This document shows, in pieces, positions 8,396 through 55,172 of a stretch of 55,172 bases of DNA. The DNA comes from a virus (Duplodnaviria; Caudoviricetes). Position 1 is the stretch's first letter. Every line of letters starts with the position of its first letter. The DNA lies in the IMG/VR virus record IMGVR_UViG_3300044982_000113, positions 1 to 55,172 of that record, one strand, 5' to 3'. The notes beneath the pieces are model-generated. The model was not told the DNA's origin. It saw only the letters and a list, made by a program, of their open reading frames with translations, and did not search any database. The position numbers and the translations under genes were made by a program.

Positions 8396-8405
8396 GGAGG
8401 TTCGA

Positions 8406-28936: not shown

Positions 28937-28999
28937 CCATGGTGTGGAGGGGGTCTGGGGCAGCGCTCCCTCCACACTTTGCCTACAACAGGAGGGGCC

Positions 29000-31174
29000 A
29001 TGGCTACCCCGGAAGGTCTTCCAACAGTAACTCTAGCCGGGCAGTATCTTGAGCCCGACATTCTCGGTACCCCTATGCAGGGTAGCTTGGTGTTCTCCCC
29101 CTCGGTGAGTCTGGTAACCTTCCCAGATCAGAACGTCCTCATCACCGGATCCATATCCGTGAACCTCGATGAGACCGGCTCCTTCACCATCACCATGATC
29201 GCCACGGATACTGCTCACGCTAACCCCAGTGGTTGGTCGTTCACAGTAACCGAGAAGATCGTCGGGGTCAAGAACCGGATCTACAACATCTTCTTGCCTT
29301 ACACCACCGAGACGATCAATCTCGCCGACATTACTCCGACCGATGCGGCGCCGGTATATCTCCCAGTGGTTGGACCTCAGGGTCCTCCGGGAGTCATTAC
29401 GACCTTGAACGGTTACTCGGCTTCTACGGTTGACCTCGATGCCGCGGACGTTGGAGCAATCGCCACCTCGGCCAAGGGTGCAGCTTCTGGGGTGGCTTCG
29501 CTGGACTCGAGTGGGTTGGTACTGGCAACTGAGTTGAACCTGGCTCAGTCAACCGACTTTCCCAACTCGATCAGTTCCACCAACAACCCTGGCACCTCAG
29601 CTCGAATAGCCAGGTTGGACCACACTCACTCGGGCATGGACCTGGTTTCCGGTCAGACCGCAGCCGGCGCCAAGGTGTTCTCGACGTCAGTGCAGTCTGC
29701 TGCGTTGGGTGTGGGAATCGCTCCGTCCTCGGCTCGCAGCCAGATCTCATCCAATGCTCAGGAGATAGTCCTCCTGGTTCAGCAGAACATCGCCAGTCCC
29801 ACCAACCCTATCTTTTTGGTTACCTCAACAGGTGCCAACGACATCGCATTTGGTACTGCGGTGGGTGGGGATGCGGACGATCGATTCAACTTCCAGGTAG
29901 GTGGGAAGCTGAGCTGGGGAACTGGTGCGGCGGTTTCCGACACCTCGCTTCTACGGTCTAACGTCAATGAGTTGACCACAGGACTGTTGGTGGTCTCCAC
30001 ACCGACCTCGACTGGCCATGCAACCACCAAGGCTTACGTCGATGGGTCGGCAACCTACACCGGCACGAAGACCTTCAGCAATGCTTCCTCGAGTGCCTTG
30101 GCTGCGGTCACCATCGCCACCGGGGACACCAACGACCGATTCACCCTCAACATCAGTGGTCTGATGTCCTGGGGTCCTGGAACTGCCGCGACCGATGTGA
30201 CCTTGTACCGAGAGTCATCAGGAGTCCTGGGAGTTACCGGCCAGCTCATCATCGACATCGCTGCACCGACGGCGGCTGGTCACGTTACCCGGAAGGACTA
30301 CGTAGACAATAACTACGTCAGTCTTGCTGGCACACAGACCATCACAGGTGCCAAGACCATCACCGGCACTGGTACCATGTTGCAGGTGCTCAGGACTTCA
30401 GGAACAGCCGCTGGGGTTTACATCTACAACAGTACCGCCTCGGGTGTCGGCATCAACCTTAACGTCACTGCTTACTCCACTGACCGAATCATCTCATCGG
30501 GTCTAGTGGCTGATACGGTATCTCCGTTCAGTATCTATGGAGATGGTCAGCATCAGTGGGGTGCGGGTGGCAGTGCTGCGCGAGACACCAACCTGTACCG
30601 CAAGGCTGCCAACGTACTGGCTACGGATGACAACCTCTCGGTGGGAATGGACCTCTACCTACCTGGCGGCACATTCCGTAACACTCTCTCCAGCGCGGTT
30701 ACCGTGGCCAATACGGTCACCGAGACTATCCTAGCTTCCTGCACCATCCCTGCATCCGACATGGTCGTGGGGGCTGATTACCGTATAACCGCATGGGGAA
30801 TAGCCTCGGTTACTGGTACCCCGACCATCACGTTCAACGCTCGGATCGGTGGGGTGGCGGGCGGTAAGCTGGGTGGGTCGGGTGCACGGACTGCCCAGAG
30901 CGGAGCGGCAACTCGGCCCTGGAAGGTGGAACTTCAGTTCACTTGCCTGTCCACAGGAACTACTGGAACCACCTTTGGTAACGTAGTGACCTCAGAGATC
31001 ATCAGCGTTTCCGGCGGATTCCCCGGTCCTGCCGCTGTGATCATGGACGGCAGTTCTGCTGTGACGGTCAATACCACAGTTTCTCAAGTACTCTGCATCA
31101 CCGCCGTCTGGTCGGCTGCATCCGCCTCGAACACGGTTACCTGCGAGGGTTGGACCGCGGAACGGGTCAGCTAA
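29000..31174 (+). CDS. Tail fibre / appendage protein
   Basis: 'GPQGPPG', 'GVASLDSSG', two H.T.K.YVD motifs, three internal repeats. Confidence 0.8.
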   Translation: MATPEGLPTVTLAGQYLEPDILGTPMQGSLVFSPSVSLVTFPDQNVLITGSISVNLDETGSFTITMIATDTAHANPSGWSFTVTEKIVGVKNRIYNIFLPYTTETINLADITPTDAAPVYLPVVGPQGPPGVITTLNGYSASTVDLDAADVGAIATSAKGAASGVASLDSSGLVLATELNLAQSTDFPNSISSTNNPGTSARIARLDHTHSGMDLVSGQTAAGAKVFSTSVQSAALGVGIAPSSARSQISSNAQEIVLLVQQNIASPTNPIFLVTSTGANDIAFGTAVGGDADDRFNFQVGGKLSWGTGAAVSDTSLLRSNVNELTTGLLVVSTPTSTGHATTKAYVDGSATYTGTKTFSNASSSALAAVTIATGDTNDRFTLNISGLMSWGPGTAATDVTLYRESSGVLGVTGQLIIDIAAPTAAGHVTRKDYVDNNYVSLAGTQTITGAKTITGTGTMLQVLRTSGTAAGVYIYNSTASGVGINLNVTAYSTDRIISSGLVADTVSPFSIYGDGQHQWGAGGSAARDTNLYRKAANVLATDDNLSVGMDLYLPGGTFRNTLSSAVTVANTVTETILASCTIPASDMVVGADYRITAWGIASVTGTPTITFNARIGGVAGGKLGGSGARTAQSGAATRPWKVELQFTCLSTGTTGTTFGNVVTSEIISVSGGFPGPAAVIMDGSSAVTVNTTVSQVLCITAVWSAASASNTVTCEGWTAERVS

Positions 31175-33481: not shown

Positions 33482-34963
33482 GTGAAGTACCGTTGGAGGA
33501 CTCGACCCTACCGACACCAAGTAGCGGCCGTCAAGAAGCTGTTGTCAACTGGGTACGGTGGTGCTCTACTGATGGCACCCCGGACCGGCAAGACCAAGAC
33601 CATGATCGACTACGGCTCGATCTTGTACCAAGCCAAGGATGTAAACCGCATCCTGATCTTCTGCCCGCTCTCAGTCATCGGGGTGTGGGAACGGGAGATC
33701 AAGGCTCACTCGCCCTTCGAGTCGCGCATCACAGTCTGGGATAAGGAGGCTCGCAAGAAGGGGGTGACGCTGCCCAAGTATGGTCGGGATGGCATTGACT
33801 GGGTCATCCTCAACTACGATGCCCTGTCAACTCCTGGGGCGGTGATGAAACAAGACGAATATGGCAATAAGCTGCGCTCACGCAAGCGCGGAGGTAAGTA
33901 CGACATCATGAAGGCCCTCGAACGCTGGCAGCCCCAGGTTATCGCCCTGGATGAAAGCCACCGCATCAAGTCGCCGACTGCGGTCAAATCTCGAATGCTC
34001 CACAAACTGGGCAAGGTGGCAGACTACCGGGTCATCATGACCGGTACTGTCGTGACCAAGAAGAAGCGCGTGTTCGACATTTGGTCGCAGTGGAAGTTCC
34101 TCAATCCCAGTAAGTTCCCCATGCCGTTCGGTAACTTCAAGCAGACCTATGGGGTGTGGAGGAAGCGAAATGGGTACGATCAGTGGATCAGGAACATCAA
34201 CGAGGATGGTCTCCATGCCCAGATCCACGAGGATGCATTCGCGATCAGCCGAGAAGAATGCTTCGACCTACCGCCGAGGCGAGAGCAGATCATTCCTGTT
34301 GAGCTGGATGAATCGGCTTCGGGCTATGATGACATGGCCAAAGACATGGTTGCTCGGATTCACACCGGCGAGATCACGACGGCATCAATCGCGCTTGTGC
34401 AGTCGCTCCGACTCCGTCAGATGACCTCAGGCATCGCCAAGACTGAGCCCACGACTGAGCACCCCGAAGGCCGACTCGTTCGTGTGGGACGAGAGAAACT
34501 CGATGTCATGAGGGACATTCTCTCCGACCTTTTCGAGGCGGATGAGAAGGTGGTAGTAGGTGCACACTTCGTCGGTGACATCGTGGCTATCAAGGCGATG
34601 TGCGAGAAGCTCAAGGTGGATTGCTTCGTCCTCCGAGGTGGTATCCCCCGTAAACAACGAGATGCTGACATCGAGGCATTCAGGGTCCACACAGGGCCAG
34701 CTTGCTTCGTTGCACAACCTCAGGCGGCATCGCTGGGGATTGACCTGAGCACCGCGTCGATCTGCATCTGGTTCAGCCTCACCCCGAGCTACGTTGACTT
34801 TACTCAGTTCGAAGACCGGATTGCGTTGTCCAATCGTTCGACGATCTATATGTACCTGCTCGCTACAGGAACAATCGACGAACTGCTTTACCAGACTCTT
34901 CAAGAGGATGGTGACGTAGCTAAGGCCATCATGGCTTCCCCGGACCGCCTCTTGCGAGAATAA
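33482..34963 (+). CDS. SNF2-family (SF2) helicase
   Basis: PRTGKT, DESH, MTGT and 'SLGIDL' motifs. Confidence 0.92.
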   Translation: MKYRWRTRPYRHQVAAVKKLLSTGYGGALLMAPRTGKTKTMIDYGSILYQAKDVNRILIFCPLSVIGVWEREIKAHSPFESRITVWDKEARKKGVTLPKYGRDGIDWVILNYDALSTPGAVMKQDEYGNKLRSRKRGGKYDIMKALERWQPQVIALDESHRIKSPTAVKSRMLHKLGKVADYRVIMTGTVVTKKKRVFDIWSQWKFLNPSKFPMPFGNFKQTYGVWRKRNGYDQWIRNINEDGLHAQIHEDAFAISREECFDLPPRREQIIPVELDESASGYDDMAKDMVARIHTGEITTASIALVQSLRLRQMTSGIAKTEPTTEHPEGRLVRVGREKLDVMRDILSDLFEADEKVVVGAHFVGDIVAIKAMCEKLKVDCFVLRGGIPRKQRDADIEAFRVHTGPACFVAQPQAASLGIDLSTASICIWFSLTPSYVDFTQFEDRIALSNRSTIYMYLLATGTIDELLYQTLQEDGDVAKAIMASPDRLLRE

Positions 34964-34979: not shown

Positions 34980-35009
34980 TTGACTCAGCATCGCTGCCTC
35001 CTATACGAT
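34980..35009 (+). promoter_or_regulatory. Promoter of the nucleotide-metabolism cluster
   Basis: TTGACT-N18-TACGAT. Confidence 0.7.
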
Positions 35010-35070: not shown

Positions 35071-35634
35071 ATGCTCATTGTTGAAGGCCCGGATGGAGCT
35101 GGCAAGACCTCTCTCATCCGACGCTTGAGTGCTGACCTGCGCTGGCCGGTAGCGCCGAAGGTCGTTGCCTCCGACACGACACCCATGGTGAACCTGGGTG
35201 CTTGGGTCGACGCCAACACCCAGCAGGGCTTCCAGCGCAAGATCTTCGACCGCCACCGACTCATCTCGGAGCCGATCTACGGCCCCTCGACGAGGTCGCA
35301 GCAGGACCAGAACTTCCTCGACCTCGGCTGGGTCGCGGAGATGAACTGGCGGTTCTACACGGCCAAGCCGATCCTGATCTACTGCATCCCTTCGCTGGAG
35401 ACGGTACGTCGGAACGTCATCAATGACCCCAACAACGCGGCGATTGCCAAGCGGATCACGGCGATCTACTCGTCCTACGTGACTCGGGCTTCGGTGGATT
35501 TCACCAGCGCCAGCACGTCGGCCAAGCTCTACAACTACGAGACGACCTTGTACGAGGACGTTCTCAACTGGACTCGCCGCGAACTGATGAGTCGCGGCAT
35601 CGGCAAGAAGGAGCAGAGTGAGCAGCACGTATGA
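35071..35634 (+). CDS. Thymidylate-kinase-like dNMP kinase
   Basis: IVEGPDGAGKTS P-loop; 'IFDRH.LISEPIYG'. Confidence 0.85.
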   Translation: MLIVEGPDGAGKTSLIRRLSADLRWPVAPKVVASDTTPMVNLGAWVDANTQQGFQRKIFDRHRLISEPIYGPSTRSQQDQNFLDLGWVAEMNWRFYTAKPILIYCIPSLETVRRNVINDPNNAAIAKRITAIYSSYVTRASVDFTSASTSAKLYNYETTLYEDVLNWTRRELMSRGIGKKEQSEQHV

Positions 35635-36064
35635 CAACCAGGTCCTGACGACCCCGGTCGAACAGCGCAACGACTACGGTCCGAACTACCTGGGTGAGTG
35701 CTTCGCGGCTCAGCGACAGCTGATGGAGAAGTACCACGACATCGAGGACTCCAACGGTTCCCCGGTTCTGATGGAGGACGAGGAGGGCGATCTGAACTCT
35801 CGGGTTGTCCAGAGCAGGCTCCACGAGCTCTTCGGCTACGCCACCCGCGAGTGGGCCGAGGCGATGCAGGAGCTGAAGCTCAAGCCGTGGAAGCGGGAGG
35901 AGATCCCGACCGACATCGCCAAGTTCGTGGGTGAGGTAGGCGACCTGTTCCACTTCTTCGTCGAGTTCTGCATCACGGCGGGGATCAGCGACAAGGACCT
36001 CCGGGACGCGTACTTCAAGGAGCACGCGAAGAACCACCGACGCATCGACTCCGGCATCTACTAG
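35618..36064 (+). CDS. All-alpha NTP pyrophosphatase (dimeric dUTPase/dCTPase-like)
   Basis: 'REWAEA...KPWK...EVGDLFHFF'. Confidence 0.85.
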   Translation: MSSTYDNQVLTTPVEQRNDYGPNYLGECFAAQRQLMEKYHDIEDSNGSPVLMEDEEGDLNSRVVQSRLHELFGYATREWAEAMQELKLKPWKREEIPTDIAKFVGEVGDLFHFFVEFCITAGISDKDLRDAYFKEHAKNHRRIDSGIY

Positions 36065-36079
36065 CAAGGAACTGCTCCT

Positions 36080-36241
36080 GTGATACGCCCCGCGATCCGT
36101 CGCCGCATCGAAACAGCGATGGAACTCGCCGAGGCATGGGAGTCGGTGATGTCGGCGGTGGCTTACACTGCCGCCGGCATCATCGGCATCTTGGCCGTCA
36201 TCATGATCATCTCCGCCGGCAACAAGTTTGGATTGCTATGA
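36080..36241 (+). CDS. Small membrane protein (53 aa; not in the ORF track)
   Basis: RBS AAGGA, GTG start, one TM helix, ATGA overlap with the next gene. Confidence 0.65.
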   Translation: MIRPAIRRRIETAMELAEAWESVMSAVAYTAAGIIGILAVIMIISAGNKFGLL

Positions 36242-37278
36242 CGTCACCGAGGTTGTACACCGCCCGAACCATGACGGCCCTCCACGACGACATGGTCAAG
36301 TCGCTAGTGCTGGGTACTCCGGATCAATTGTCCACCGTGAGTGGGGTCGATGTATCGATCCACAACGTGGTGGCCTACGCCGATCGCATGGTGTGGGACT
36401 TCGACATGAAGAACTACTGGTTGACCAAGTCCAGGTGGTCGACCATGGTTCGTCAGTACCTCGACCCCGACGATGTCCAGGCTTGGTTGGACAAGTGCAG
36501 TACCGGCATCGGTAGGAAGGGCCGAGGAATCGCGGTGCTGCGCACCCGCACTGTCGCCCCCCGAGGCGGTGCCGCGACCGGCCACAGCAACAAGGAGACC
36601 CGACGATGGGGCTCTTGCATGCTGACCATCAGCTACAAGGCTGACCCCAAGCCGCAGATCACCCTGCACTCCAGGACCTCCTACCTCGGATACATCGGGG
36701 TACTGGACATGGGCATCGCCTGGATGCTGGCCAAGTACCTGGCGCACGAACTGAAGATGCCCGTCGAGGACATCAGCTTCATGTGGTACAACGAGGCGAT
36801 CCAGTGGCACTACTTCAAGTCGTTGGCCTGGATGCTCAGCAACCCCGACCTCGACGATCGGAAGATGTTCCGTCGGCTCATCCTCAAGAACAAGTCCGGC
36901 ATGGAACCGAATGAGGTCGAGATGGTCGACAACCATCCCGCGATCTACGGCAGCCGGAGATGGCTCATGAAGCTCCGCAAGGAGGATGCGGCCGGCAGTA
37001 CTTACGGCGACATGACCTACAACACCTACCGGCGAGTTCGGCGCCGATTCCACACCGAGGTGCTGGGTCACATGAAGGCCCAGACCTTCGAGGGTTGGTC
37101 CTACTACAAGCAGGGCGAGAAGGCCGGCGAGGAGAAGGAGTTCTTCAAGGCTTACCCGCCGCTGCCTTCGGTGGGCATCGACGACCTGGACCTCTCGGCC
37201 ATCAAGATGCCCTTCGGCAAGCGCTACGGTGGCGACTTCGTCGGGGGCGACGACATCGAGGATGACGACGATGAGTAA
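36238..37278 (+). CDS. Highly divergent thymidylate-synthase-fold protein
   Basis: 'SCMLTISY..ITLHSRTSYLGYIGVLDM..LAHEL..FMW..IQWH' follows the TS core spacing. Confidence 0.6.
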   Translation: MTSPRLYTARTMTALHDDMVKSLVLGTPDQLSTVSGVDVSIHNVVAYADRMVWDFDMKNYWLTKSRWSTMVRQYLDPDDVQAWLDKCSTGIGRKGRGIAVLRTRTVAPRGGAATGHSNKETRRWGSCMLTISYKADPKPQITLHSRTSYLGYIGVLDMGIAWMLAKYLAHELKMPVEDISFMWYNEAIQWHYFKSLAWMLSNPDLDDRKMFRRLILKNKSGMEPNEVEMVDNHPAIYGSRRWLMKLRKEDAAGSTYGDMTYNTYRRVRRRFHTEVLGHMKAQTFEGWSYYKQGEKAGEEKEFFKAYPPLPSVGIDDLDLSAIKMPFGKRYGGDFVGGDDIEDDDDE

Positions 37279-37792
37279 GAAGAAACAGCACAAGACCCAG
37301 CCCGGCAGTACCGGACGAACTCGGGATGCTCTTCCCAAGGCGGTGAAGCTTCCTTTCCCGCATCCGGACAATGGTCCTGAATCGGCAGGGATGGCAGAGA
37401 TTGGTCGGATCGTGATGCTCGACAATGATCCTCCCACCAAGCCCGAGCCGGTACCCCACTACTTCTGCGCGAGCGGCAAGAACGGGGAAGGCCCAGTTCG
37501 CTGCCGGCGGTGTGGGATGCATGAGGAGGGTCTGCTCATCCGGGATGAGCTCTGCTCAGGTTGGCAGGACTGGGAAGAGGACCTTCCGAGTCCTACCCCC
37601 GCCGTCCGGGCCATCAAGCGGATCCAGATCGTGGTTCTGCACAACGACAACGTCAACACCTTCCATCCCGTACCCGAGGGGGAAGGCTGGAAGATCGACC
37701 CTCCCAGCCGGACCTTGCAGATCGGCAAGGGGGTTGGTAGGGTACATGTACCGCTCGACAATGTGCGGTACTACAGCCCCCAGGAGTACTGA
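37271..37792 (+). CDS. Hypothetical protein
   Basis: Overlapping start; CRRC motif. Confidence 0.7.
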   Translation: MSKKKQHKTQPGSTGRTRDALPKAVKLPFPHPDNGPESAGMAEIGRIVMLDNDPPTKPEPVPHYFCASGKNGEGPVRCRRCGMHEEGLLIRDELCSGWQDWEEDLPSPTPAVRAIKRIQIVVLHNDNVNTFHPVPEGEGWKIDPPSRTLQIGKGVGRVHVPLDNVRYYSPQEY

Positions 37793-37793
37793 C

Positions 37794-37970
37794 ATGGCAA
37801 TGGACAACATCCAGCTCCGACGCGCTCTCGCCGAGATCGACGGGGGCATCGAGGCCAACCTCCCGATCGTGGCGGTGACCGAGGAGGGGGAGATCCTGGA
37901 GATCACCTCGGTCAAGTTCTCCCACGTCGAGGGTGGTCAGATCCACATCAACGTTCAGTACATGGACTAG
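37794..37970 (+). CDS. Small hypothetical protein
   Basis: RBS AGGAG. Confidence 0.65.
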   Translation: MAMDNIQLRRALAEIDGGIEANLPIVAVTEEGEILEITSVKFSHVEGGQIHINVQYMD

Positions 37971-37978
37971 GACAACAC

Positions 37979-38848
37979 ATGGTGAGGGTCTACACAGGAC
38001 CCTTCATCCGCGTGATTCGGCAGCTTCTGAAGGATTTCTCGGGAGCTGCCGAACCCGTAGATGTGGGGCAATGGCAGTCGGTCGACATCAAAGGCGATGC
38101 GTCAAGGGTCACTTGGGAGCTCAGGGAAGCGGTCCTGGCGATCGAGATGCAGTCGACGATCGATCAGGCGCAGCGCGAATACTCGCCGTCTCTGCCCTGG
38201 GCTGAGGATCACTTCCTCGAAAGGGTATCCGGCAAACCGCTGAACCCCCCGCCTTCCCAAGCTTGGTGGCCGTTTGCCCAGAACGGCAATGACCAACACA
38301 AGAAGGGTGGGAAGTTTTCCCACACCTACCCTGAGAGGTTCTGGCCTCGCTTCGCCGGCAAGGACCTCAACGTCACCTCGCTGCTGATCGATGGTGTGGA
38401 GCAGATCACTCCTCGACGAGGTATTCGATTTGCTTATGGCGATCTTCATGACGTCATAACTCGGATCGCCAAGAACCCCCAAACTCGACAGGCTTACCTG
38501 CCGATCTGGTTTCCAGAGGATACCGGGGCGCCTGACAGCGAGCGAGTACCCTGCACACTGGGGTACTTGTTCATGGTGCGGGGCGGTAAGCTTCACCTGA
38601 CCTACCACATCAGGTCCTGTGACTTCATGCGTCACTTCCGGGATGATGTCTACATGGCGGTGAGGCTGGGTCAGTGGATCGTCGAGATACTCGACCGTGA
38701 GTATGGACTCATGTTGGAAGTGGGTGAACTCACGATGCACATCGGATCTTTCCACATCTTCGCCGGCGATCGACCGATGTTGAACCACCTTCTTCGAGAA
38801 GCCCTCAAAGAAGCCAACCACGATCTCCTTAGGGGACTAGGTCAATGA
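37979..38848 (+). CDS. Thymidylate-synthase-superfamily enzyme, probably dCMP-directed
   Basis: TRQA, VPCT, RSCD and 'HIGSFHIF'; Asp at the E. coli N177-equivalent position. Confidence 0.9.
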   Translation: MVRVYTGPFIRVIRQLLKDFSGAAEPVDVGQWQSVDIKGDASRVTWELREAVLAIEMQSTIDQAQREYSPSLPWAEDHFLERVSGKPLNPPPSQAWWPFAQNGNDQHKKGGKFSHTYPERFWPRFAGKDLNVTSLLIDGVEQITPRRGIRFAYGDLHDVITRIAKNPQTRQAYLPIWFPEDTGAPDSERVPCTLGYLFMVRGGKLHLTYHIRSCDFMRHFRDDVYMAVRLGQWIVEILDREYGLMLEVGELTMHIGSFHIFAGDRPMLNHLLREALKEANHDLLRGLGQ

Positions 38849-39306
38849 GGCCCACGCGTGATCACATCCTGATGGGTTCCGCTTTGCTGTTCGCTCAGCG
38901 AGGAACCTGCAGTCGGGCACAGGTCGGGGCGGTGATCTCGGTCGGTAGCCGTATACTGGTCAGCGGCTACAACGGCGCACCCGCCGGAATGCCGCACTGC
39001 GATCACATCAGTTGCAGTTGCGCCACCAACTTGATTCAACACAGGTACTGCCCCCAGCATAGCCCCTGCACCCGAGCGGTTCATGCCGAGGCCAACGCGC
39101 TGGCTTTCGCCGCTCGTTACGGCGTATGTGTGGAAGGTGCCACGCTCCACACCACGAGGGTGCCCTGTTTGACCTGCGCCGGGTTGATCATCAACTCTGG
39201 TATCCGGCGGGTTGTCTGGGGCGAAGAACATCGAGACATGGCTGGACTGAGCCTCCTTGCCTCTGCCGAGCTAGAGGTGGTAGAATATCGCCATGCCGAT
39301 TTCTAA
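38845..39306 (+). CDS. dCMP deaminase
   Basis: GYNG, HAEANA and PCLTC motifs. Confidence 0.93.
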   Translation: MRPTRDHILMGSALLFAQRGTCSRAQVGAVISVGSRILVSGYNGAPAGMPHCDHISCSCATNLIQHRYCPQHSPCTRAVHAEANALAFAARYGVCVEGATLHTTRVPCLTCAGLIINSGIRRVVWGEEHRDMAGLSLLASAELEVVEYRHADF

Positions 39307-41872
39307 TCTCGATCCCGATGGGCGACCTATGTTGTCGTTGATCGGTAATCGATCCTGCACCGACTGCAAGCTCCAACGCAATACCGAGGAAGTCTGCGAG
39401 ATGGGTACTGGCCCTGGCCAGGCTCAGATCATGGTGGTCGGTAAGATGCCGAACTCGGACAGATACCAGCAGGCGCTGGAAGATCAACTGCTTGAGGTTG
39501 GCCTGAGCCCGAGCCAGATGTACTTCACCCAAGCCCTGAAGTGCCGAAACTTCGAGGACAATGCCAGCAATGCCGACGTCAAGGCTTGCCGGCAATATCT
39601 TGACAACGAGATTGCGGTTGTCAAGCCCTCACACATCCTGGCACTTGGTAACGAGGCATTGCTCGCGACCACCGGCCATTCTGGGATCATGAAGTACCGA
39701 GGTCGGGTAATCGAGAAGAATGGCTACACGGTCATTCCCACCGTATCCCCATCAGCGGTCTCGCGCAATCCTGGTCAACTGCCCGGGTATATGGCTGACC
39801 TTCGACTCTTCGCCAATGACTATCTCGGCAAGTCATCTGGGGTCAAGATTCCGAAGTATTCGGTGATCGACACCAAGAAGAAGTTGCAGGCGCTGAAGAA
39901 GATCCTCTTCATGACGAAGGAGATCAGCTTCGACATCGAGTCCACCATCAATCCGCTTGGGGAGTTCGACCCCGGCGCCAAGGTGATCAGTCTCGCCGGC
40001 ACTTGCATCGTCGATATGGGCGACGGCAAGGACAAGATCTTCGGCTTCGCTTTGCCGCTCTACCATCCCGAATCGCCCTGGCAACGTACCTGGCGATCGG
40101 TGCTGAGGTTCCTCAAGGGGGCTCTCGAGTCAATCCGTAAGGGGACTGCTCAGAACGGCAAGTTCGACTGTCGGTGGTTGGTGCACTTCGGCATCAACAT
40201 GAACCACACGTTCGACACCATGCTGGCCATCCACATGCTGAACGAGAATATCGCCAAGGGCCTCAAACCCAATGCCATGGCTCGATTGGGTGTACCACCA
40301 TGGGGTCGTGATACCAAGAACCTGCTGAACGACCCCCTCGCCGAGGTACTCGAGTATAACTTCCTCGATACCTACTACACCCACTTGCTGAAGAATGACC
40401 TGAAGAAGGAACTCGAGGAACAACCTCGGGTGATGCGCATCTTCGCCAAGTTGATGATGCCGGCAAGTCGAGACCTGGTGCACATCGAGCGTCGCGGGGT
40501 GTGGATCGACCTTGAGCGACTGCGCGCCAGAAAACCTCAGTGCGAAGCCAAGCTCGCCGAGATCGAGTCGAGCATCAGATCCTACCTGCCCGCGCAGGAC
40601 TCCGCCGATTGGCCGGTCGATGCCAAGGGTAAACCCCGTGACATCAACTTCAATGCCAGCATCTTCGCCAGGTGGTTTATCTTCGACTGGTTGAAGATGC
40701 CGGTGCTTGAACGGGGCAAGGAAAAACCCAACGGCGACCCCGGTGACCCCAGCATGGCGGAGTCGGTGTTGCTCCACCTCAAAGGCAAGCATCCGGCAAT
40801 CCAACTCATGCTCGATCGTGTGGAATGGCAGAAGAACCTGAGCTCGTTCTTCAATGCCTACGAGGTCATGCATGATGAAAACCACCGGGTCCACACCACC
40901 TTCAAGCTTGCCGGTACTGTCACTGGTCGACTCAGTTCGGGTAAGGTTGATGCTGAGAAGGTCGGGGGTAAGACGAACCTGCGCGGGGTAAACCTTCAGC
41001 AGGTACCTCGCGATCCATTCATCCGAGGACTCTTCGGTGCGCCTCCCGGTTGGACCTTCGTCGAAGCTGACTACTCTCAGATCGAGCTTCGTATTGCCTC
41101 GTTTATCGCCAATGAACGCCATATGAAGCAGCTGTACATCCAGGGCGCCGACATCCACATGACCACCGCTATGGCGGTGACCGGCTTGCCCAAGAACCGA
41201 ATTACCAAGGAGATTCGAAAGAAAGTCGGTAAGCCGGTCAACTTTGGGTTCCTCTATGGTATGGGGTGGAAGAAGTTCATCGAAACTGCCTTCAACAACT
41301 ACGGTGCGGTGTTCACCGAGTCTGAGGCCAGAGGGTATCGAGAAGCTTACTTCCAGCTTTTCCCCGATCTGATGAGGTGGCACGATCGTCAGCGACGTCT
41401 CGTAGCCAACCATGGGAGGGTGCAGTCACCCCTTGGGCGAGTGCGCCACCTGCCCGACATCTACTCGCCTGACAAGATGGTCCGGGCTGAGGCAGAGAGG
41501 CAGGCAATCAACTCGCCGGTGCAGGGCTTCGCCAGTGATATGGCCTTGCTCTCCATGACGATCATCAACGAGGAGTTCCGGCGCGAGGGTATCGCCGGTC
41601 ACTGCATCGGTCTGGTTCATGACGCCATCAACTTCGAGATCCGAGACGATGAACTGGCCAGGGCACTCCCCATCATCAAGAACACGATGGAAGACCCCGA
41701 TCCACTTCGACGTAAGTTTGGCACCGTGCTTGACATTCCCATCATCGCTGACCTGAAGCTGGGACGACACTGGGGTGACTCCCATGAGGTTGAGGATGCC
41801 TCGGTTATCTATGACGAAGAGCTATTGCGCGGATGGATGGAACAGAACCACCCCGCTTATGCTAGTCTTTGA
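39293..41872 (+). CDS. Family A DNA polymerase with N-terminal family-4 UDG-like domain and 3'-5' exonuclease
   Basis: UDG-like four-Cys domain; FDIE exonuclease; DYSQIELR, KPVNFGFLYG (Phe762 type), VHDA. Confidence 0.95.
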   Translation: MPISNLDPDGRPMLSLIGNRSCTDCKLQRNTEEVCEMGTGPGQAQIMVVGKMPNSDRYQQALEDQLLEVGLSPSQMYFTQALKCRNFEDNASNADVKACRQYLDNEIAVVKPSHILALGNEALLATTGHSGIMKYRGRVIEKNGYTVIPTVSPSAVSRNPGQLPGYMADLRLFANDYLGKSSGVKIPKYSVIDTKKKLQALKKILFMTKEISFDIESTINPLGEFDPGAKVISLAGTCIVDMGDGKDKIFGFALPLYHPESPWQRTWRSVLRFLKGALESIRKGTAQNGKFDCRWLVHFGINMNHTFDTMLAIHMLNENIAKGLKPNAMARLGVPPWGRDTKNLLNDPLAEVLEYNFLDTYYTHLLKNDLKKELEEQPRVMRIFAKLMMPASRDLVHIERRGVWIDLERLRARKPQCEAKLAEIESSIRSYLPAQDSADWPVDAKGKPRDINFNASIFARWFIFDWLKMPVLERGKEKPNGDPGDPSMAESVLLHLKGKHPAIQLMLDRVEWQKNLSSFFNAYEVMHDENHRVHTTFKLAGTVTGRLSSGKVDAEKVGGKTNLRGVNLQQVPRDPFIRGLFGAPPGWTFVEADYSQIELRIASFIANERHMKQLYIQGADIHMTTAMAVTGLPKNRITKEIRKKVGKPVNFGFLYGMGWKKFIETAFNNYGAVFTESEARGYREAYFQLFPDLMRWHDRQRRLVANHGRVQSPLGRVRHLPDIYSPDKMVRAEAERQAINSPVQGFASDMALLSMTIINEEFRREGIAGHCIGLVHDAINFEIRDDELARALPIIKNTMEDPDPLRRKFGTVLDIPIIADLKLGRHWGDSHEVEDASVIYDEELLRGWMEQNHPAYASL

Positions 41873-42137: not shown

Positions 42138-42199
42138 CCTTGCCTAGTTCCTTCTCGGCATATATGATCGACTAATCACTGACCGAGGAGGATTTGCTC

Positions 42200-43261
42200 G
42201 TGCCTGGGCTTTACTATGATGAGCGAGTGGGCAAGGAAGTCGTCACCCACTCCATGATCAAGACGTTTAGACGGTGTCCCCGTCAAGCGTTGTACAAGTA
42301 CCAGGAACGACTCAAGCCGAAGGTGGTGGCCAAGCCGCTCAAGCGCGGAACCTGGATGCACTACCTGCTTGAGGAGCACCACGCCGGTCGAGACTGGCGA
42401 AAGAAACATGCCGAACTCTCGAACAAGTACAACGAACTGTTCGATGAGGAGAAGGACTTCTACGGCGATCTGCCGACCGAGTGCCTGGCACTCATGGAGT
42501 CCTATATCTGGCATTACAAGGCTGATCCCTGGAACGTGCTTGAGACTGAGTTCACGGTCGAGGCTGACTTCCCGGATGGTACCCTGTACCGGGGCAAGGT
42601 CGATGCACTGATCGAGAATGCCTTCGGCCTATGGATCGTCGACCACAAGACCCATGCAGTTCTGCCTGACCAGACATTCCGACTTCTCGATGCCCAGTCG
42701 GCATTGTATATCTGGGCAGCTCGGAAGATGGGCATCGAGGTTCAGGGCTTCATCTGGAATTACCTCAAGACCAAGGCGCCGGCTGAACCTCGGTTGCTCA
42801 AGGATGGTTCGAGGTTGTCGCTGAAGCTGGGTGACACCGACTGGGTGACCTACACCAAGACTCTGAATCGACTCAAAGAGGAACGGGGTTACAAGATCAC
42901 CCGGGCCAACGTCGAGTTTGCCAACCGGCTCAAGGGGGATCGCTATGTACCCGGCGAGCCCCAGGTCTCACCCTTCTTCCGACGTGACATTCTGGAGAAG
43001 GATGAGGGTATGCTGAAGCGGGTGGCCGCGGAAGCCTATCATACCGCTCGACGCATGGCGCGATACCCCTTCACCCAAAGGGATATCGTAGAGAGGGTCG
43101 TGGATCGCGGGTGCACCTTCACCTGCTCATACCGCGACCTCTGCACCGCCGAGCTCATGGGAGGCAACACGACCTACATTCTGGGCAAGACGATGAAGGT
43201 CGGCGACCCTCAGGATTACTACGAGGACCGCGCTGGCGAGCAGAGGGGTACTCCGGAATAA
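42200..43261 (+). CDS. PD-(D/E)XK Cas4/RecB-like exonuclease
   Basis: 'SMIKTFRRCPR', 'GTWMH', 'GKVD..IVDHKT' and C-terminal Cys cluster. Confidence 0.88.
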   Translation: MPGLYYDERVGKEVVTHSMIKTFRRCPRQALYKYQERLKPKVVAKPLKRGTWMHYLLEEHHAGRDWRKKHAELSNKYNELFDEEKDFYGDLPTECLALMESYIWHYKADPWNVLETEFTVEADFPDGTLYRGKVDALIENAFGLWIVDHKTHAVLPDQTFRLLDAQSALYIWAARKMGIEVQGFIWNYLKTKAPAEPRLLKDGSRLSLKLGDTDWVTYTKTLNRLKEERGYKITRANVEFANRLKGDRYVPGEPQVSPFFRRDILEKDEGMLKRVAAEAYHTARRMARYPFTQRDIVERVVDRGCTFTCSYRDLCTAELMGGNTTYILGKTMKVGDPQDYYEDRAGEQRGTPE

Positions 43262-43301: not shown

Positions 43302-43502
43302 ATGTTCGAGCTCAAGTATAACCTCAAGCGCCGCACCGAAAAGGCCGCCATGGCTTTGGTGTGGAAGCTGCCCAAGAAGTTCGTCATGTGGTGCGCGATC
43401 CGAGTGATCGCCAACGCCACCACGGGGAAGTACAGCAACCAGGTTGTTCCCGACCTGACTGCCATGGAGGCGCTGGCGCGCTGGGAGCCGGCGAATGGCT
43501 GA
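43302..43502 (+). CDS. Hypothetical protein
   Basis: RBS GGGAG. Confidence 0.7.
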   Translation: MFELKYNLKRRTEKAAMALVWKLPKKFVMWCAIRVIANATTGKYSNQVVPDLTAMEALARWEPANG

Positions 43503-44301
43503 GAAAGACTACAGCGCCATCGCCAAACGTCGGATCACTCGACCGGCGGACATCCAGCGGTTGCCGAAGTTCCACATCTACGCCCGACAGAAGAAGGGCA
43601 AGTCGACCTTCAGCTGCTCGGCGGGTGTGGAAAAGACACTCATCCTGGACCCCGAGCACGGCACCGACACCATGAAGACCAAGAACCCCCACGTCTGGCA
43701 CATCGAGAGGTGGGAAGACCTGGATGAGGCTTACAACTTCATCCGATCTGGGGATCACAACTATGAGTGGGTCTCGGTCGACGGTCTCACGAAGCTCTCC
43801 CAAATGTCGCTGAAGTACACCATGAGGTTGCAGGAAGAACGGTCGATCGACCGAATCCCCGGTCAGGTGCAGCAACGCGACTACGGTAAGGCCGGCGAGG
43901 TCATGAAGACCATGCTGACCAACTTCCACAACCTGCCGCAGGGGGTCATCTTCACCTCCCAGGAGCGGATGCAGGACGGTTTCAATGCCGAGGAGGACGA
44001 GGAGGCAGAAGAGACCGCTGCGGAGTTCGTCCCGGATCTTCCCAAGGGGGTTCGTGGCTACGTCAATTCACTGGTTGATGTCATCGGTCGACTTTACGTC
44101 GTCAAGGTGGAGAGCGCCCGGAACCCTGAGAAGATGGTCGTGCAGCGACGGCTTTGGGTTGGGGAGTCGGTGAAGTATGACACCGGCTACCGATCCGACT
44201 TCACCTTGCCCGACATGGTCAAGATGCCCACGATCCCCAAGTTGGTTCAGTTGATTGAGGAGGGACAGCCCGCAACCAAGAAGAAGGTTGCTGCCAAGTA
44301 A
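43495..44301 (+). CDS. Sak4-like AAA ATPase / recombinase
   Basis: 'YARQKKGKST', 'LILDPEHG', 'VSVDGLT', 'DYG'; lies between exonuclease and SSB. Confidence 0.85.
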   Translation: MAEKDYSAIAKRRITRPADIQRLPKFHIYARQKKGKSTFSCSAGVEKTLILDPEHGTDTMKTKNPHVWHIERWEDLDEAYNFIRSGDHNYEWVSVDGLTKLSQMSLKYTMRLQEERSIDRIPGQVQQRDYGKAGEVMKTMLTNFHNLPQGVIFTSQERMQDGFNAEEDEEAEETAAEFVPDLPKGVRGYVNSLVDVIGRLYVVKVESARNPEKMVVQRRLWVGESVKYDTGYRSDFTLPDMVKMPTIPKLVQLIEEGQPATKKKVAAK

Positions 44302-50175: not shown

Positions 50176-50427
50176 GTGGCCATCGTCCGGCCCGAGAAAA
50201 TGCCCGAGGATCTGGATGCCCTGGATGAATGGTTGGTGAAAGCCTACAACCGGGGCAAGGAAGACGGCCGAGACAAGCTTTGGGAGCAGATCAAGGCTTT
50301 CCTGCTCAAGGAGTTCTTGTACTCCAAGGGTCGTAATCGCCGCGCCGACATGGAAAACCCGCGAACCTTCGCAACCAACGAGGTCATGAGGAAGCTCTAC
50401 GCGGCTTACGAGGACGGAAGTCTGTGA
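50176..50427 (+). CDS. Hypothetical protein
   Basis: GTGA overlap with the primase gene. Confidence 0.7.
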   Translation: MAIVRPEKMPEDLDALDEWLVKAYNRGKEDGRDKLWEQIKAFLLKEFLYSKGRNRRADMENPRTFATNEVMRKLYAAYEDGSL

Positions 50428-52445
50428 AACCAGCTCTCGACCACGCCAAAGCGCTTCGTATTATCTCGCGTGCGTGGGGTAAGCAAGACGGATATGCCTT
50501 CTTTCCACACATCGACCGTGAGGAGCAGGTTCGGTCGGGTGAACGGCGGGCGGGGTTTCATGAGAACCGTGCCTTCAAGTGGCCGCAGGAGAAAGCGGCT
50601 ATCCTGAAACACATGGAGGCTCATGAGACCCATGACCTCTATTGGTGTCCCTCACTGTTTGAGGGCACCGAACGCAAGACCGAGCTCGCCATGGATGAAC
50701 ATGCCTTGTGGGCTGACCTCGACGAGGCCAATCCCAAGAAACTGCATGGGGAAACCGACTTCAAGCCTACGATCGCCTGGGAAACCTCACCTGGTCGATA
50801 TCAAGGTCTCTGGGTTGGCAACCCGGTCATGGGCGACTTCCAGGGTGTTAGTTGGCCTGGCAACGAAAACCAACGACTCAGCTATCACCTCGGTGCGGAC
50901 AAAAGCGGTTGGGACACCACCCAATTGCTGCGTTTCCCGGGTTGGCCTAACTACAAGCCCGAGTACAAGAAGCGCGGTCAACCGGCTCCCGGGAAACTCC
51001 TTTGGGACCGCGGGCCGATGTACTCCATCGAGGACTTCAAGGAACTGCCAGCAGTTGCTGGAGCTCTCACTGCGGATAAACTCGGCGATATCCTGACCGA
51101 TGAGATCGACGCGGTCGATATCACCAAGGTCAAAGCTCGGGTTAAGCTGAAGTTGAACCAGCGAGCTCGGGATTTGCTTGGTGCCCGACACGTCGCCGGC
51201 GACCGAAGCGAAAACCTCTGGTATCTCATCCGTTGCCTGGCCGATGCGGGTTGCACGGTCCAGGAGATCGTCGCCATCGCTCGGGCTTCGGTGTGGAATA
51301 AGTTCGATGGTCGCAGCGATGAGATCAAGCGCCTGATCACCGAAGCGATGAAGGCCATCGATCAGCGCGATCCGGAAGTCTCAGAGAAGATTGAGGAAGA
51401 GGAGGCACCCAAGAATCGCCCCTCACGCATCGCCGCTTTTCTCAAGGACGTCAAGCCGCCACGGTGGCTCGTCGAGGGCATTGCCACCGAAGGTTCCGTC
51501 GGGTTTATCGCGGGTCAACCCAAGTCATTCAAATCGTGGTTCGGCCTCGACCTCGCCATTTCAGTTGCCACTGGGGCGATGTTCCTGGACTACTTTCGGG
51601 TTGTGAAGCCTGGACCAGTGCTCTACATCCAAGAAGAAGACTCGGCGATCACGGTCAAAAGCCGGGTACGCAAGGTGTGGAACAGCAAAACCGTTGACCG
51701 GATGCGCCTCCACACCAACGGTCACGATGTCATCTGGGAACCGGGCAACTCCCGAAACTTCGACCCGGACATCGACATTTACCTCCAAGAGGGTTTCATC
51801 GTCAGTGAGGGTCACTGGCAGGAATGGCTCGATGAGACTCTCACGGCAGGTATGGATGGTGTACCATATGTTCTGGTTATCATCGACACGCTGATGAACG
51901 TTGCCGGCGATGTTGAGGAGAATAAGAGCCAGAGCATGACCACCAAGATCTTCAAGCCCGTTAAGTTGCTCTGCCGCAAACACGCCGTCTCACTCCGCTT
52001 TATCCACCATATGGGCAAAGGTGGCGGGGACAATGATACTCGTCGCGGTGGACAGAAAATGCTAGGTGGCACGGCGAACCATGCCTGGGCTGAGGATAGT
52101 CTCTACCTGAGCCGCGGCAAAACCGGCACCATCCATATGGAGTTCGAGTCTAAGTCTGCCCCCGAAAAACAGTACACCATCAGCGGGTTGGATAATCGAG
52201 GCTGGACCCCCTACTTCGAGCCCGAAAAGCCCAAGAAAGAGCCTGTGCCGACTTCTCGCGGACGTAAACCCCGAACTGCCCGCACCAACCCCACGCTGGA
52301 TCTGCTGCAGCAAGGGGGTACCCTCCACACAAACGATATTGCCACCCAACTCAACCGACAGTATGGGCCAACCTATAAGTCGCTCCGAGCTCTCGAGGCT
52401 CAAGGCAAGGCTCACAGGACGGTGAATGGCTGGCAAGCTACCTAA
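50424..52445 (+). CDS. Primase-helicase (RepB/AEP-like primase, helical domain, RepA/AAA_25 helicase, C-terminal wHTH)
   Basis: WADLD, ETSPGRYQ, LRFPG, DRSE, GQPKSFKS, IIDTL and IHH motifs. Confidence 0.92.
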   Translation: MKPALDHAKALRIISRAWGKQDGYAFFPHIDREEQVRSGERRAGFHENRAFKWPQEKAAILKHMEAHETHDLYWCPSLFEGTERKTELAMDEHALWADLDEANPKKLHGETDFKPTIAWETSPGRYQGLWVGNPVMGDFQGVSWPGNENQRLSYHLGADKSGWDTTQLLRFPGWPNYKPEYKKRGQPAPGKLLWDRGPMYSIEDFKELPAVAGALTADKLGDILTDEIDAVDITKVKARVKLKLNQRARDLLGARHVAGDRSENLWYLIRCLADAGCTVQEIVAIARASVWNKFDGRSDEIKRLITEAMKAIDQRDPEVSEKIEEEEAPKNRPSRIAAFLKDVKPPRWLVEGIATEGSVGFIAGQPKSFKSWFGLDLAISVATGAMFLDYFRVVKPGPVLYIQEEDSAITVKSRVRKVWNSKTVDRMRLHTNGHDVIWEPGNSRNFDPDIDIYLQEGFIVSEGHWQEWLDETLTAGMDGVPYVLVIIDTLMNVAGDVEENKSQSMTTKIFKPVKLLCRKHAVSLRFIHHMGKGGGDNDTRRGGQKMLGGTANHAWAEDSLYLSRGKTGTIHMEFESKSAPEKQYTISGLDNRGWTPYFEPEKPKKEPVPTSRGRKPRTARTNPTLDLLQQGGTLHTNDIATQLNRQYGPTYKSLRALEAQGKAHRTVNGWQAT

Positions 52446-55074: not shown

Positions 55075-55172
55075 GGATAAAACGCTCGACGCCCCCTGAC
55101 GGGGGCTGAGAGCTAGATCATTTGCCGAGGAATGCTAGCATACGCCGACGGATGATCATGCCTCAGATCGCC
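55046..55172. repeat. 127-bp terminal overlap, right copy
   Basis: Identical to 1-127. Confidence 0.95.

Follow-up and report, generated by a model that had tools for sequence, protein, structure and literature searches.

A phage operon pairing an Asp-type thymidylate synthase homolog with a divergent thymidylate synthase-fold protein: a candidate module for cytosine-directed pyrimidine-nucleotide remodelling

Introduction

What base is a phage making when a single operon encodes two proteins of the thymidylate synthase (TS) fold, both with Asp where enzymes acting on dUMP have Asn, together with a nucleotide kinase, a nucleotide pyrophosphatase, a deaminase and a DNA polymerase? This arrangement occupies positions 35071-41872 of the virus record IMGVR_UViG_3300044982_000113; the window analysed here is the whole of that record, 55,172 bases, which is classed as carrying direct terminal repeats and rated 100% complete. 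The two proteins are called the TS homolog (open reading frame, ORF, 37979-38848) and protein X (ORF 36238-37278), and positions in the TS fold follow E. coli ThyA numbering, in which the "-3" position is Leu143, three residues before the catalytic Cys146. A sequence-only reading of this stretch had proposed a new pathway, in which C5-modified dCMP is made and either incorporated into DNA or deaminated. We favor, at a probability of about 0.55, the view that the operon serves to remodel pyrimidine nucleotides before replication, replacing cytosine and perhaps also providing thymine, or an analogue of it, by a cytosine-first route. That modified dCMP would be made and then incorporated, deaminated, or both, is suggested because enzymes that appear to act on C5 of cytosine nucleotides are encoded alongside a kinase, a dNTP pyrophosphatase and a dCMP deaminase.

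Replacement of cytosine in phage T4 follows the same logic, and a 5-methyl-dCTP deaminase was reportedly described for phage XP-12 in the 1980s. The TS superfamily has given each known class of phage pre-replicative pyrimidine modification: methyl, hydroxymethyl and, very recently, hydroxy. Asn177Asp marks the use of dCMP, a change of Leu143 to Asp or Glu goes with hydroxymethyl products, and Asp169Asn is found in flavin-dependent 5-hydroxy-dCMP synthases (PMC13326640). Introducing Asn177Asp into E. coli or L. casei TS switches the enzyme to dCMP (PMC13326640, PMC8670742), and positions 177 and 147 best separate the TS genes of modified from those of unmodified contigs (PMC8670742). The C-terminal tail of E. 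coli TS seals the site for hydride transfer and is missing from T4 dCMP hydroxymethylase (dCH); a hydroxymethylase signature of Asp or Glu at -3 plus a Ser-x-Tyr pair has been proposed, and the D145N enzyme is inactive (PMC6400193). Neighbourhoods containing a deaminase, an Asp-type TS, PRA-PH and DNA_pol_A are enriched on restriction-resistant, cytosine-modified metavirome contigs (104/149 modified vs 17/277 unmodified), five of the seven TS assayed yielded 5-methyl-dCMP, and the TS-linked deaminases prefer 5-methyl- or 5-hydroxymethyl-cytosine, so that 5mdCMP can be turned into dTMP, as happens in XP12 and PaMx74 (10.1101/2024.12.05.627091).

The novelty originally claimed for the pathway is thus lost, since this neighbourhood is already published, and the cytosine-first route to thymidine that had been called unusual has a precedent in the 5-methylcytosine-selective deaminases giving dTMP in XP12 (10.1101/2024.12.05.627091). 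The pathway is not categorically new, because it would work like the nucleotide-level replacement of T4 and XP12 and its type of neighbourhood is in print. What is new here is the X family and the strict trio of X, Asp-type TS and deaminase.

Results

Layout of the operon

The region is one string of plus-strand genes with overlapping ORFs, taken from the ORF list:

35071-35634, plus strand: P-loop nucleotide kinase with the motif GPDGAGKTS, a putative modified-dNMP kinase (phrog_761)
35618-36064, plus strand: all-alpha NTP pyrophosphatase of the dimeric dUTPase / T4 gp56 family (PF08761, phrog_12184)
36080-36241, plus strand: 53-residue ORF with a single hydrophobic stretch, an uncertain gene (ORF list; no PHROG match)
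36238-37278, plus strand: protein X, a predicted divergent TS-fold enzyme of an unnamed family (phrog_13667, model, residue conservation)
37229-37792, plus strand: variable ORF between the X and TS genes, start uncertain (third-position G+C, GC3, favours the frame over about 37400-37700)
37797-37970, plus strand: 57-residue ORF before the TS gene (GC3 0.86 at 37850; no family match)
37979-38848, plus strand: Asp-type TS homolog (PF00303)
38845-39306, plus strand: zinc dCMP/cytidine-type deaminase with HAE...PCxxC (PF00383, phrog_174)
39293-41872, plus strand: DNA polymerase I with an N-terminal family-4 uracil-DNA glycosylase (UDG)-like domain and a 3'-5' exonuclease (PF03167, PF01612, PF00476)

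The tight coupling described earlier is borne out by four junctions that overlap by 4-17 nt (kinase/pyrophosphatase, 17 nt; small ORF/X, 4 nt; TS/deaminase, 4 nt; deaminase/polymerase, 14 nt). Third-position G+C is consistent with the assigned frames (0.84 for the kinase and 0.82 for X), and a consensus scan found no plus-strand terminator-like site between 35071 and 41785.

The TS homolog is an Asp-type enzyme outside the published product signatures

The TS homolog (...ERVPCTLGY...HIRSCDFMRHFRDDVYM...) matches PF00303 at 34.7 bits, against a cut-off of 24.3, over residues 155-274. When it was compared with Protein Data Bank (PDB) sequences by HMMER, L. casei TS came first, the top entry being the N229D mutant 1njc; the second Asp of its RDD motif aligned to L. 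casei Asn229 (E. coli Asn177), and the Cys of VPC to the catalytic Cys. A MAFFT alignment with E. coli ThyA and T4 gp42 gave the same equivalences. The residues concerned are Arg189 (Leu143), Cys192, Thr193 (His147), Arg212-Ser213, Asp215 (Asp169), Asp223 (Asn177) and His259 (His207), of which Arg189, Cys192, Arg212, Asp215, Asp223 and His259 are invariant in 36/36 aligned relatives. The Asp and the catalytic-position Cys that the sequence-only reading had assigned to this protein are therefore in place. The alignment panel consisted of E. coli ThyA, the canonical ThyA (gp67) of Microbacterium phage Triscuit, T4 gp42 and the TS of the XP12-like MET13-T1, and positions 143/146/147/166/167/169/177/207/209 read as follows:

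Clade of the window's TS homolog: R/C/T/R/S/D/D/H/F
E. coli ThyA: L/C/H/R/S/D/N/H/Y
T4 gp42: D/C/T/R/S/D/D/H/Y
XP12-like MET13-T1 TS: N/C/P/R/S/D/D/H/Y

The profile score above cut-off, the Cys, the Arg166-Ser167 clamp and His207 place the protein in the TS/dCMP hydroxymethylase superfamily, and Asp rather than Asn at 177, Arg in place of Leu143 and the lack of a sealing C-terminal tail set it apart from a canonical dUMP-methylating ThyA. After His207 it has 30 residues, compared with 15-37 in its clade, 30 in T4 gp42, 57 in E. coli and 63 in the XP12-like TS, and its structural model (pLDDT 78.7) stops where E. coli residue 225 would lie. This model fits AfhB (9iqc/9iqu, Z 17.7) and classical TS (Z 17.3) equally well. 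Given Asp at 177 across the relatives, together with the published Asn177Asp work, the TS homolog is probably specific for cytosine.

The product is less easily assigned. The TS homolog shares with T4 gp42 the Asp at 177, the Thr at 147 and the length of the C terminus, but has Arg189 at -3, where hydroxymethylases have Asp or Glu and methylases Leu, and appears to have F-x-Y rather than S-x-Y; the position of the Ser-x-Tyr pair (Ser94/Tyr96) reads F-A-Y when anchored on the conserved Tyr-Gly, in a half of the protein where the alignment is weak and the model poor (residues 95-153). As in an XP12-type methylase, the TS gene is directly followed by the deaminase gene; the long tail and the dihydrofolate reductase (DHFR) gene of that type are missing. 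The TS homolog lacks the 5-hydroxy signature, Asn for Asp169, because Asp169 is kept (Asp215), and it also appears to retain the equivalent of the folate-contacting Trp80. The missing tail, the Thr at 147 and the lack of a DHFR partner make the enzyme look like a hydroxymethylase; by alignment, the water-activating acid would be replaced by an invariant Arg. A plain T4-type hydroxymethylase, which we first favored on tail length and Thr147, was dropped, since the published signature requires Asp or Glu at -3. Judged from their residues, neither TS-fold enzyme of the operon appears to fit the published methyl, hydroxymethyl or hydroxy signatures, and the TS clade fails the tested signatures of all three. 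The proposal of C5-modified dCMP thus holds as regards cytosine-directed enzymes accompanied by a kinase, a pyrophosphatase and a deaminase, and does not extend to a product class, for which no published signature fits. For the TS homolog, a hydroxymethyl product is a tentative assignment, a product that is neither hydroxymethyl nor methyl is held just as tentatively, and a methyl product is somewhat doubtful.

Other enzymes of thymidylate synthesis were not found, as had been noted before. In the complete genome the TS homolog is the single PF00303 match, which leaves no Asn-type ThyA, and neither ThyX (PF02511) nor DHFR (PF00186) gave a match. Among the 30 window proteins scanned against Pfam, which are a part of the ORFs, there was no glycosyltransferase, DNA methyltransferase or aGPT-type enzyme; the same scan also gave an amidase and a RepB-primase/AAA_25 helicase, and left several proteins without a family. 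A paper on Rhodococcus phage WC1 concerns a ThyX phage.

Much of this gene set could also serve an ordinary supply of thymidylate, in which the deaminase converts dCMP to dUMP, the TS homolog converts dUMP to dTMP, the kinase makes dTDP and dUTP is removed, leaving canonical DNA and X as an accessory. These four activities are the textbook dTTP route, thymidylate kinase is the top PHROG for the kinase, and the annotators of the cluster CT Gordonia phages (SEA-PHAGES) read the deaminase, TS, dUTPase and thymidylate kinase of those phages as an ordinary thymine-synthesis operon (PMC10353413). However, the Asp at 177 is invariant in the clade and is the very change that switches E. coli and L. 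casei TS to dCMP, the clade lacks the tail that seals the site for hydride transfer (PMC6400193), and DHFR is absent from the genome; in addition, a second TS-fold enzyme with Cys, Arg and Asp, always present, would be left without a role. In Triscuit the Asp-type TS is directly followed by a canonical ThyA of the Asn type whose C-terminal tail is complete (gp67; L002 6167-6964), giving three TS-fold genes in a row when X is counted, and the Asp-type TS and this ThyA are therefore not redundant. Triscuit was the only phage in the scan with such an extra ThyA; the record of Microbacterium phage Huwbert has two thymidylate synthases annotated in the matched region. We consider ordinary thymidylate supply improbable.

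Protein X has the fold but not the sequence profile of thymidylate synthase

Protein X (...RRWGSCML...HSRTSYLGYIGVLDMG...) belongs to phrog_13667 (E 5e-106), a PHROG of unknown function. It has no Pfam or NCBIfam match, Pfam searches with 78 relatives (E 0.1) gave only scattered single matches, and phmmer and a profile of the 78 sequences found only chance-level matches among PDB sequences (E at least 0.11). The family is large, with 1064 relatives in a database clustered at 90% and 187 representative clusters at E <= 0.001. In the ESM Atlas, X retrieved only virus clusters of "hypothetical protein", one lower-ranked cluster (score 0.93) having PF00303 on 37% of its members, which we treat as a lead and not as evidence.

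The AlphaFold model of X (pLDDT 92.5, pTM 0.91) upholds the earlier proposal that this is a TS-fold enzyme. Foldseek returned 81 matches at E <= 0.001, TS-fold enzymes throughout among the matches listed, the best being AfhB of phage HY126 (a dCMP hydroxylase, E 2e-7) and MilA. With VIA-align, whose top matches were again TS-fold enzymes, Z was 15.0 to 9iqu (rmsd 3.6, 186 aligned), 14.3 to MilA (rmsd 3.6, 181 aligned) and about 11.5 to the TS of L. casei and of E. coli, and 396/1000 chains reached Z >= 8. In the model, Cys127 starts strand 128-134, Arg146 lies within strand 140-149 and Asp157 is in the first turn of helix 154-172, which is the order of these elements in TS. Residues 208-346 form an added helical part. 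It ends in an acidic tail rich in Asp and Glu (residues 338-346; window 37251-37278), kept in most close relatives, absent from many distant ones, and modelled with low confidence.

An hhalign comparison of X with a broad TS alignment was weak (probability 10%, E 0.003, 66 columns), and that with the narrow TS clade gave a probability of 1.6%. The weak pairing equates Cys127 with Cys146, Arg146 with Arg166, Tyr149 with Asp169, Asp157 with Asn177 and His191 with His207, and puts Trp124 at Leu143. Among 78 diverse relatives, down to about 20% identity, Tyr74, Gly125, Cys127, Arg146 and Trp183 are invariant, and Arg66, Ser145, Asp157 and Arg266 occur in at least 90%; position 157 is D in 76/78 and E in 2/78, and position 149 is Y in 62 and F in 7 of the 78. 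The helix placement and the weak pairing agree with the Asp that had been assigned to X at the Asn177 position, as the invariant Cys127 does with the assigned catalytic Cys. The fold and the placement of the catalytic Cys and of Arg166 thus connect X with TS, and detection by family sequence profile failed; according to the model, X is a protein with the TS fold and TS-type catalytic residues. The possibility that X is a 5-hydroxy-dCMP synthase was set aside, since the Asp169Asn signature is absent from X, which has Tyr149, and from the TS homolog alike.

Kinase, pyrophosphatase, deaminase and polymerase

The nearest PHROG to the kinase is phrog_761, "thymidylate kinase" (E 6.8e-11); the sole Pfam family returned, AAA_5, scored below the cut-off, and the PDB gave only weak guanylate kinase matches (E 0.28). 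The pyrophosphatase matches PF08761, dUTPase_2, at 28.9 bits against a cut-off of 22.9, and phrog_12184 at E 1.5e-21; T4 gp56 (dCTPase/dUTPase) also hits PF08761, and BLASTP of the pyrophosphatase against gp56 gave E 8e-6 over 50 residues. The deaminase matches PF00383 (E 3.6e-20) and phrog_174, dCMP deaminase (E 2.6e-47), and the polymerase has matches for three domains (UDG, PF03167, E 7.7e-16; DNA_pol_A_exo1, PF01612, E 2.4e-7; DNA_pol_A, PF00476, E 4.1e-71).

The UDG-like domain (39293-39862) has the family-4 UDG of Thermus, 1ui0, as its top PDB match (E 4.6e-11). The C-x2-C...C...C cysteines are retained, GK replaces the GE of the GE(G)PG motif, and S replaces the H of "HPA"; because of these two changes, the domain may bind uracil-like bases rather than excise them. 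PDB entries for such domains carry the name "Phage SPO1 DNA polymerase-related protein". SPO1 DNA contains hydroxymethyluracil, and this name is one of several hints at another use of the operon, in which the TS homolog makes 5-hydroxymethyl-dCMP and the deaminase converts it to 5-hydroxymethyl-dUMP, which enters DNA as a thymidine analogue and is perhaps modified further; the kinase could then be a DNA 5-hydroxymethyl-dU kinase. The short C terminus and Thr147 that the TS homolog shares with T4 dCMP hydroxymethylase would fit this scheme, as would the seven candidate deaminases linked to Asp-type TS, for which 5-hydroxymethyl-dC forms give 5-hydroxymethyl-dU in vivo (10.1101/2024.12.05.627091). 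Yet the TS homolog departs from the hydroxymethylase signature at -3 and apparently also at S-x-Y, no aGPT-pyrophosphorylase, glycosyltransferase or other post-replicative modifier was seen among the 30 scanned proteins, and the kinase matched no DNA-kinase family in a comparison run without the 5-HMUDK model. We give this scheme little credence.

X, the Asp-type TS and the deaminase are inherited together

Two sets of loci were assembled around X: a close set of 67 IMG/VR loci from a pattern search, and a distant set of 17 loci from distant X relatives, with G+C of 31-59%. In the close set, a TS gene follows X in 66/67 loci, the remaining locus ending at the contig edge, and complete partner TS genes carry R-(V/I/L)-P-C and Asp at 177 in 64/64. 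The deaminase is present in 62 of the 67 and cut off by the contig end in four. The fifth case, L050 (about 8011-8714), is the single related contig in which no deaminase lies between TS and polymerase, even though the contig extends across this stretch. The loci retain the order SNF2-kinase-(pyrophosphatase)-X-TS-deaminase-polymerase-exonuclease-AAA_24, and in nearly all of the related loci that include the upstream flank, tblastn matched the kinase at the equivalent site; L030 gave no match. In the distant set, X, Asp-type TS and deaminase occur together in 16/17 loci, one being cut, and the partner TS has Asp at 177 in 16/16. The trio is thus co-inherited strictly, across deep divergence, and its synteny extends over 83 metagenomic phage contigs.

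A search from the TS side gave 466 stretches, and the following counts come from the best 80 loci. By a regular-expression tally, Asp at 177 was present in 77/79 matched loci, and Arg at -3 likewise in 77/79. X was present in 53, three were cut upstream, and 22 were low-G+C contigs, some of them 138-373 kb, with the TS clade and neither X nor deaminase. In the two others (L143 2958-3836 and L156 4123-4965), the slot between pyrophosphatase and TS holds a protein of 280-292 residues at the edge of detection by the X profile (E 8e-4 and 0.045 when the two sequences alone were searched), with G-N-C-L-L and S-R/G-R followed at +11 by Asp, that is, the pattern Cys...Arg...+11 Asp; this protein may be a third, more divergent TS-fold branch. 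The neighbours of the TS clade in the contigs without X include two methyltransferases, a GT2 glycosyltransferase and a DegT-type sugar aminotransferase (L157 4236-9704), an NT5C nucleotidase (L146 5851-6348), a trimeric dUTPase and a family B polymerase (L150 5733-8684), and a metallophosphoesterase. These neighbourhoods are suggestive of a hydroxyl handle, though not decisive. In another contig (L127 2849-4947, shared with L046), two tandem X-family ORFs (E 4e-107 and 4e-89 to the X profile) lie upstream of a single Asp-type TS, in which Glu occupies the Asp169 position.

These data also bear on whether X belongs to the pathway at all. X might be a regulatory or scaffolding pseudo-enzyme paralogue, or act on another substrate such as CMP or RNA; it has lost the equivalent of Asp169 and shows no sequence-profile link to TS families, its C-terminal extension of 140 residues ends in an acidic tail of a type that often mediates protein contacts, and MilA, a near structural match, works on CMP. 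On the other hand, the residues noted above (Cys127, Arg146, Gly125, Tyr74 and Trp183, with D or E at 157) are kept in 78/78 relatives down to about 20% identity, a pattern expected for catalysis and not for a scaffold. X also always lies between the pyrophosphatase and the TS and deaminase genes, and where its profile falls silent, in L143 and L156, the slot is still filled by a protein with Cys...Arg...+11 Asp. An off-pathway role for X therefore seems very unlikely to us.

A proposed route

The folds and active-site residues of the proteins, and the strict inheritance of the module as a unit, are observed; from them we infer the substrates, products and cofactor, and the modification of virion DNA, in the following scheme. 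The gp56-like pyrophosphatase would convert dCTP, and dUTP as well, to monophosphates, removing the canonical triphosphate and feeding in dCMP. The TS homolog would then use methylene-tetrahydrofolate to add a one-carbon unit at C5 of dCMP by way of a Cys192 adduct, and X would act as a second Cys-dependent, cytosine-directed TS-fold enzyme. Since X lacks the folate-anchoring Asp, it would form a different C5 product from dCMP or further convert the product of the TS homolog; its options include a methyl-type product, the use of a non-folate cofactor as in the flavin enzymes, or action on what the TS homolog has made. The zinc deaminase would turn dCMP, or C5-modified dCMP, into dUMP, dTMP or 5-hydroxymethyl-dUMP, the kinase would phosphorylate the modified monophosphate, and the phage polymerase would incorporate it.

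For X, our leading guess, itself a doubtful one, is a methyl-type product that is deaminated to dTMP and so fills the role of the missing thymidylate synthase. A rather unlikely variant has the two TS-fold enzymes, neither of them giving a known product, acting in sequence on dCMP at the nucleotide level: the TS with Arg at -3 forms a C5 exocyclic-methylene or hydroxymethyl intermediate, which X, with an aromatic residue in place of the folate-anchoring Asp, reopens through a Cys adduct, adding another nucleophile or using a non-folate cofactor. If the two enzymes do act in this order, a large group of actinophages, with relatives down to 31% G+C, would carry an undescribed pyrimidine and, besides it, a deaminated partner base formed by the neighbouring deaminase.

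Several points weigh against a remodelling module. The TS homolog appears to match no complete published product signature, given its Arg at -3, F-x-Y in place of S-x-Y and the retained Asp169, and residue equivalences in the N-terminal halves depend on the alignment, the model of the TS homolog being poor at residues 95-153. X has lost the Asp169 equivalent and has no similarity to TS profiles beyond the weak match of 66 columns; its catalytic activity is putative. The identity of the kinase, likewise, is suggested by a single PHROG match. To these may be added the thymine-synthesis interpretation of the cluster CT annotators (PMC10353413), and a literature search that found no report of modified DNA in these actinophages or any relative.

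The closest known systems

Phage T4 encodes the same four kinds of activity as the operon (gp56, gp42, the gp1 dNMP kinase and the dCMP deaminase cd), and the pyrophosphatase is in the Pfam family of gp56. The window differs from T4 in lacking td and frd by genome search, in showing no glucosyltransferase among the 30 scanned proteins, in having X as an extra TS-fold protein, and in placing the genes as one operon beside that of a family A polymerase, within a genome of 55 kb.

XP12, PaMx74 and the MetaGPA contigs resemble the operon in that the gene for a dCMP-type deaminase comes immediately after that for an Asp-type TS, and genes for an all-alpha pyrophosphatase and a family A polymerase lie close by (10.1101/2024.12.05.627091), and the order of TS and deaminase in the XP12-like MET13-T1 is that of the window. 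The MET13-T1 TS, however, has a tail of 63 residues, Asn at -3 and a DHFR gene following, none of which the window TS has, and no description of X was found in the accessible text of the preprint (10.1101/2024.12.05.627091).

The 5-hydroxy-dCMP synthases (HY126 AfhB, 9iqu/9iqc; RB69 gp48; DLP3 gp80) are the top structural matches of both X (Z 15.0) and the TS homolog (Z 17.7). They combine a TS fold, Asp at 177 and the absence of the tail with abandonment of folate chemistry (PMC13326640). They differ in the Asp169Asn change, which neither window protein has, their identity to the window proteins is 12-20%, and no arabinosyl- or glycosyltransferase was seen among the Pfam-scanned proteins. MilA (5b6d/5jnh), the CMP 5-hydroxymethylase of mildiomycin biosynthesis, has a TS fold with Asp at 177 and extra helices at its C terminus; in the structural comparison of X it ranks second, and the TS homolog matches it in sequence (E 3e-5). 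It belongs to bacterial secondary metabolism, acts on a ribonucleotide, and has Asp at Leu143 (PMC13326640), where X has Trp and the TS homolog Arg.

The cluster CT Gordonia phages (Azira, GTE2 and relatives; 68 Gordonia records) carry homologs of the TS clade and of X, at 35-45% identity, beside deaminase and polymerase genes. Their published reading is canonical dTTP synthesis, X is a "hypothetical protein", and the accessible part of that account does not mention the Asp at the specificity position (PMC10353413). The literature search, which covered texts apart from supplements, found no description of X, of a second TS-like protein or of the TS clade with Arg at -3, and a survey of Microbacterium phages is silent on the DNA chemistry of Triscuit.

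Carriers in culture and consequences

X occurs in 85 isolate records (68 Gordonia, 9 Mycobacterium, 4 Streptomyces, 2 Microbacterium, 1 Curtobacterium and 1 Mycobacteroides), and is annotated "hypothetical protein" in 40/40 of the matches listed. At least 85 cultured and freely available actinophages thus carry the pair of TS homolog and X, including the cluster CT Gordonia phages, Zuko, Triscuit, Shrew and JacoRen57, and the base made by the module is readily answerable because there are so many cultured carriers. To the TS superfamily the locus adds an unnamed TS-fold branch, X, and a large Asp-type clade with an invariant Arg at the product-determining site; X, this clade and the deaminase are locked together across phages of very different base composition. 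Should remodelling be correct, modified DNA would join actinophage biology, annotations such as "thymidylate synthase" and "hypothetical protein" would change, new enzymes could become available for DNA-modification tools, and the finding would be relevant to restriction and modification-dependent defence in Actinobacteria and to the use of these phages.

Flanking genes, genome and minor observations

The operon has conserved neighbours on both sides, the SNF2-family gene lying upstream of the kinase in related loci as well, and a promoter-like site before the kinase gene:

33482-34963, plus strand: SNF2-family helicase, conserved left neighbour (PF00176, E 4.4e-17; PF00271, E 3.1e-8)
34980-35009, plus strand: promoter-like site, TTGACT-18-TACGAT, a consensus match only (9/12)
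42194-43261, plus strand: PD-(D/E)XK (Cas4/RecB-like) exonuclease, conserved right neighbour (PF12705, E 7.7e-20; synteny)
43495-44301, plus strand: AAA_24 (RecA-like) ATPase, conserved right neighbour (PF13479, E 2.1e-20; synteny)

The promoter-like site is weak evidence, because the count of such sites in the region, 7, barely exceeds that in shuffled sequence (3.9 +/- 1.8).

Among named phages, the region comes closest to Curtobacterium phage Shrew and to the Microbacterium phages Triscuit and Huwbert, which align over 30-43% of the query with 68-69% nucleotide identity; Streptomyces, Gordonia and Mycobacterium phages give more remote matches. Shrew and Triscuit are annotated in identical gene order, as kinase, dUTPase/MazG, hypothetical protein, thymidylate synthase, deoxycytidylate deaminase and DNA polymerase I. 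The phage of the window is probably a siphovirus, since its relative Triscuit is listed under Siphoviridae. Bases 1-127 of the window recur exactly, as a direct repeat, at 55046-55172, either because the genome has short repeats at its termini or because the ends of a circular assembly overlap. G+C along the window is 54-65%. Palindromes are not avoided genome-wide, with one of 64 six-base palindromes absent (TTATAA, expected 1.2) and observed/expected ratios of 0.71-1.45 for four-base palindromes; this lack of avoidance lends weak support to the favored reading.

The space between the X and TS genes differs among relatives. The ORF at 37229-37792 includes a stretch rich in Cys, C-x12-C-x2-C...C, and matches no family in Pfam, PHROGs or NCBIfam, and tblastn found it in 6/67 of the close-set loci (L004, L005, L006, L008, L017 and one weak match). 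Elsewhere in the window, an ORF of 731 residues at 28979-31174 gave no Pfam match, and a 673-residue RepB-primase plus AAA_25 primase-helicase is encoded at 50424-52445, distant from the other replication genes.

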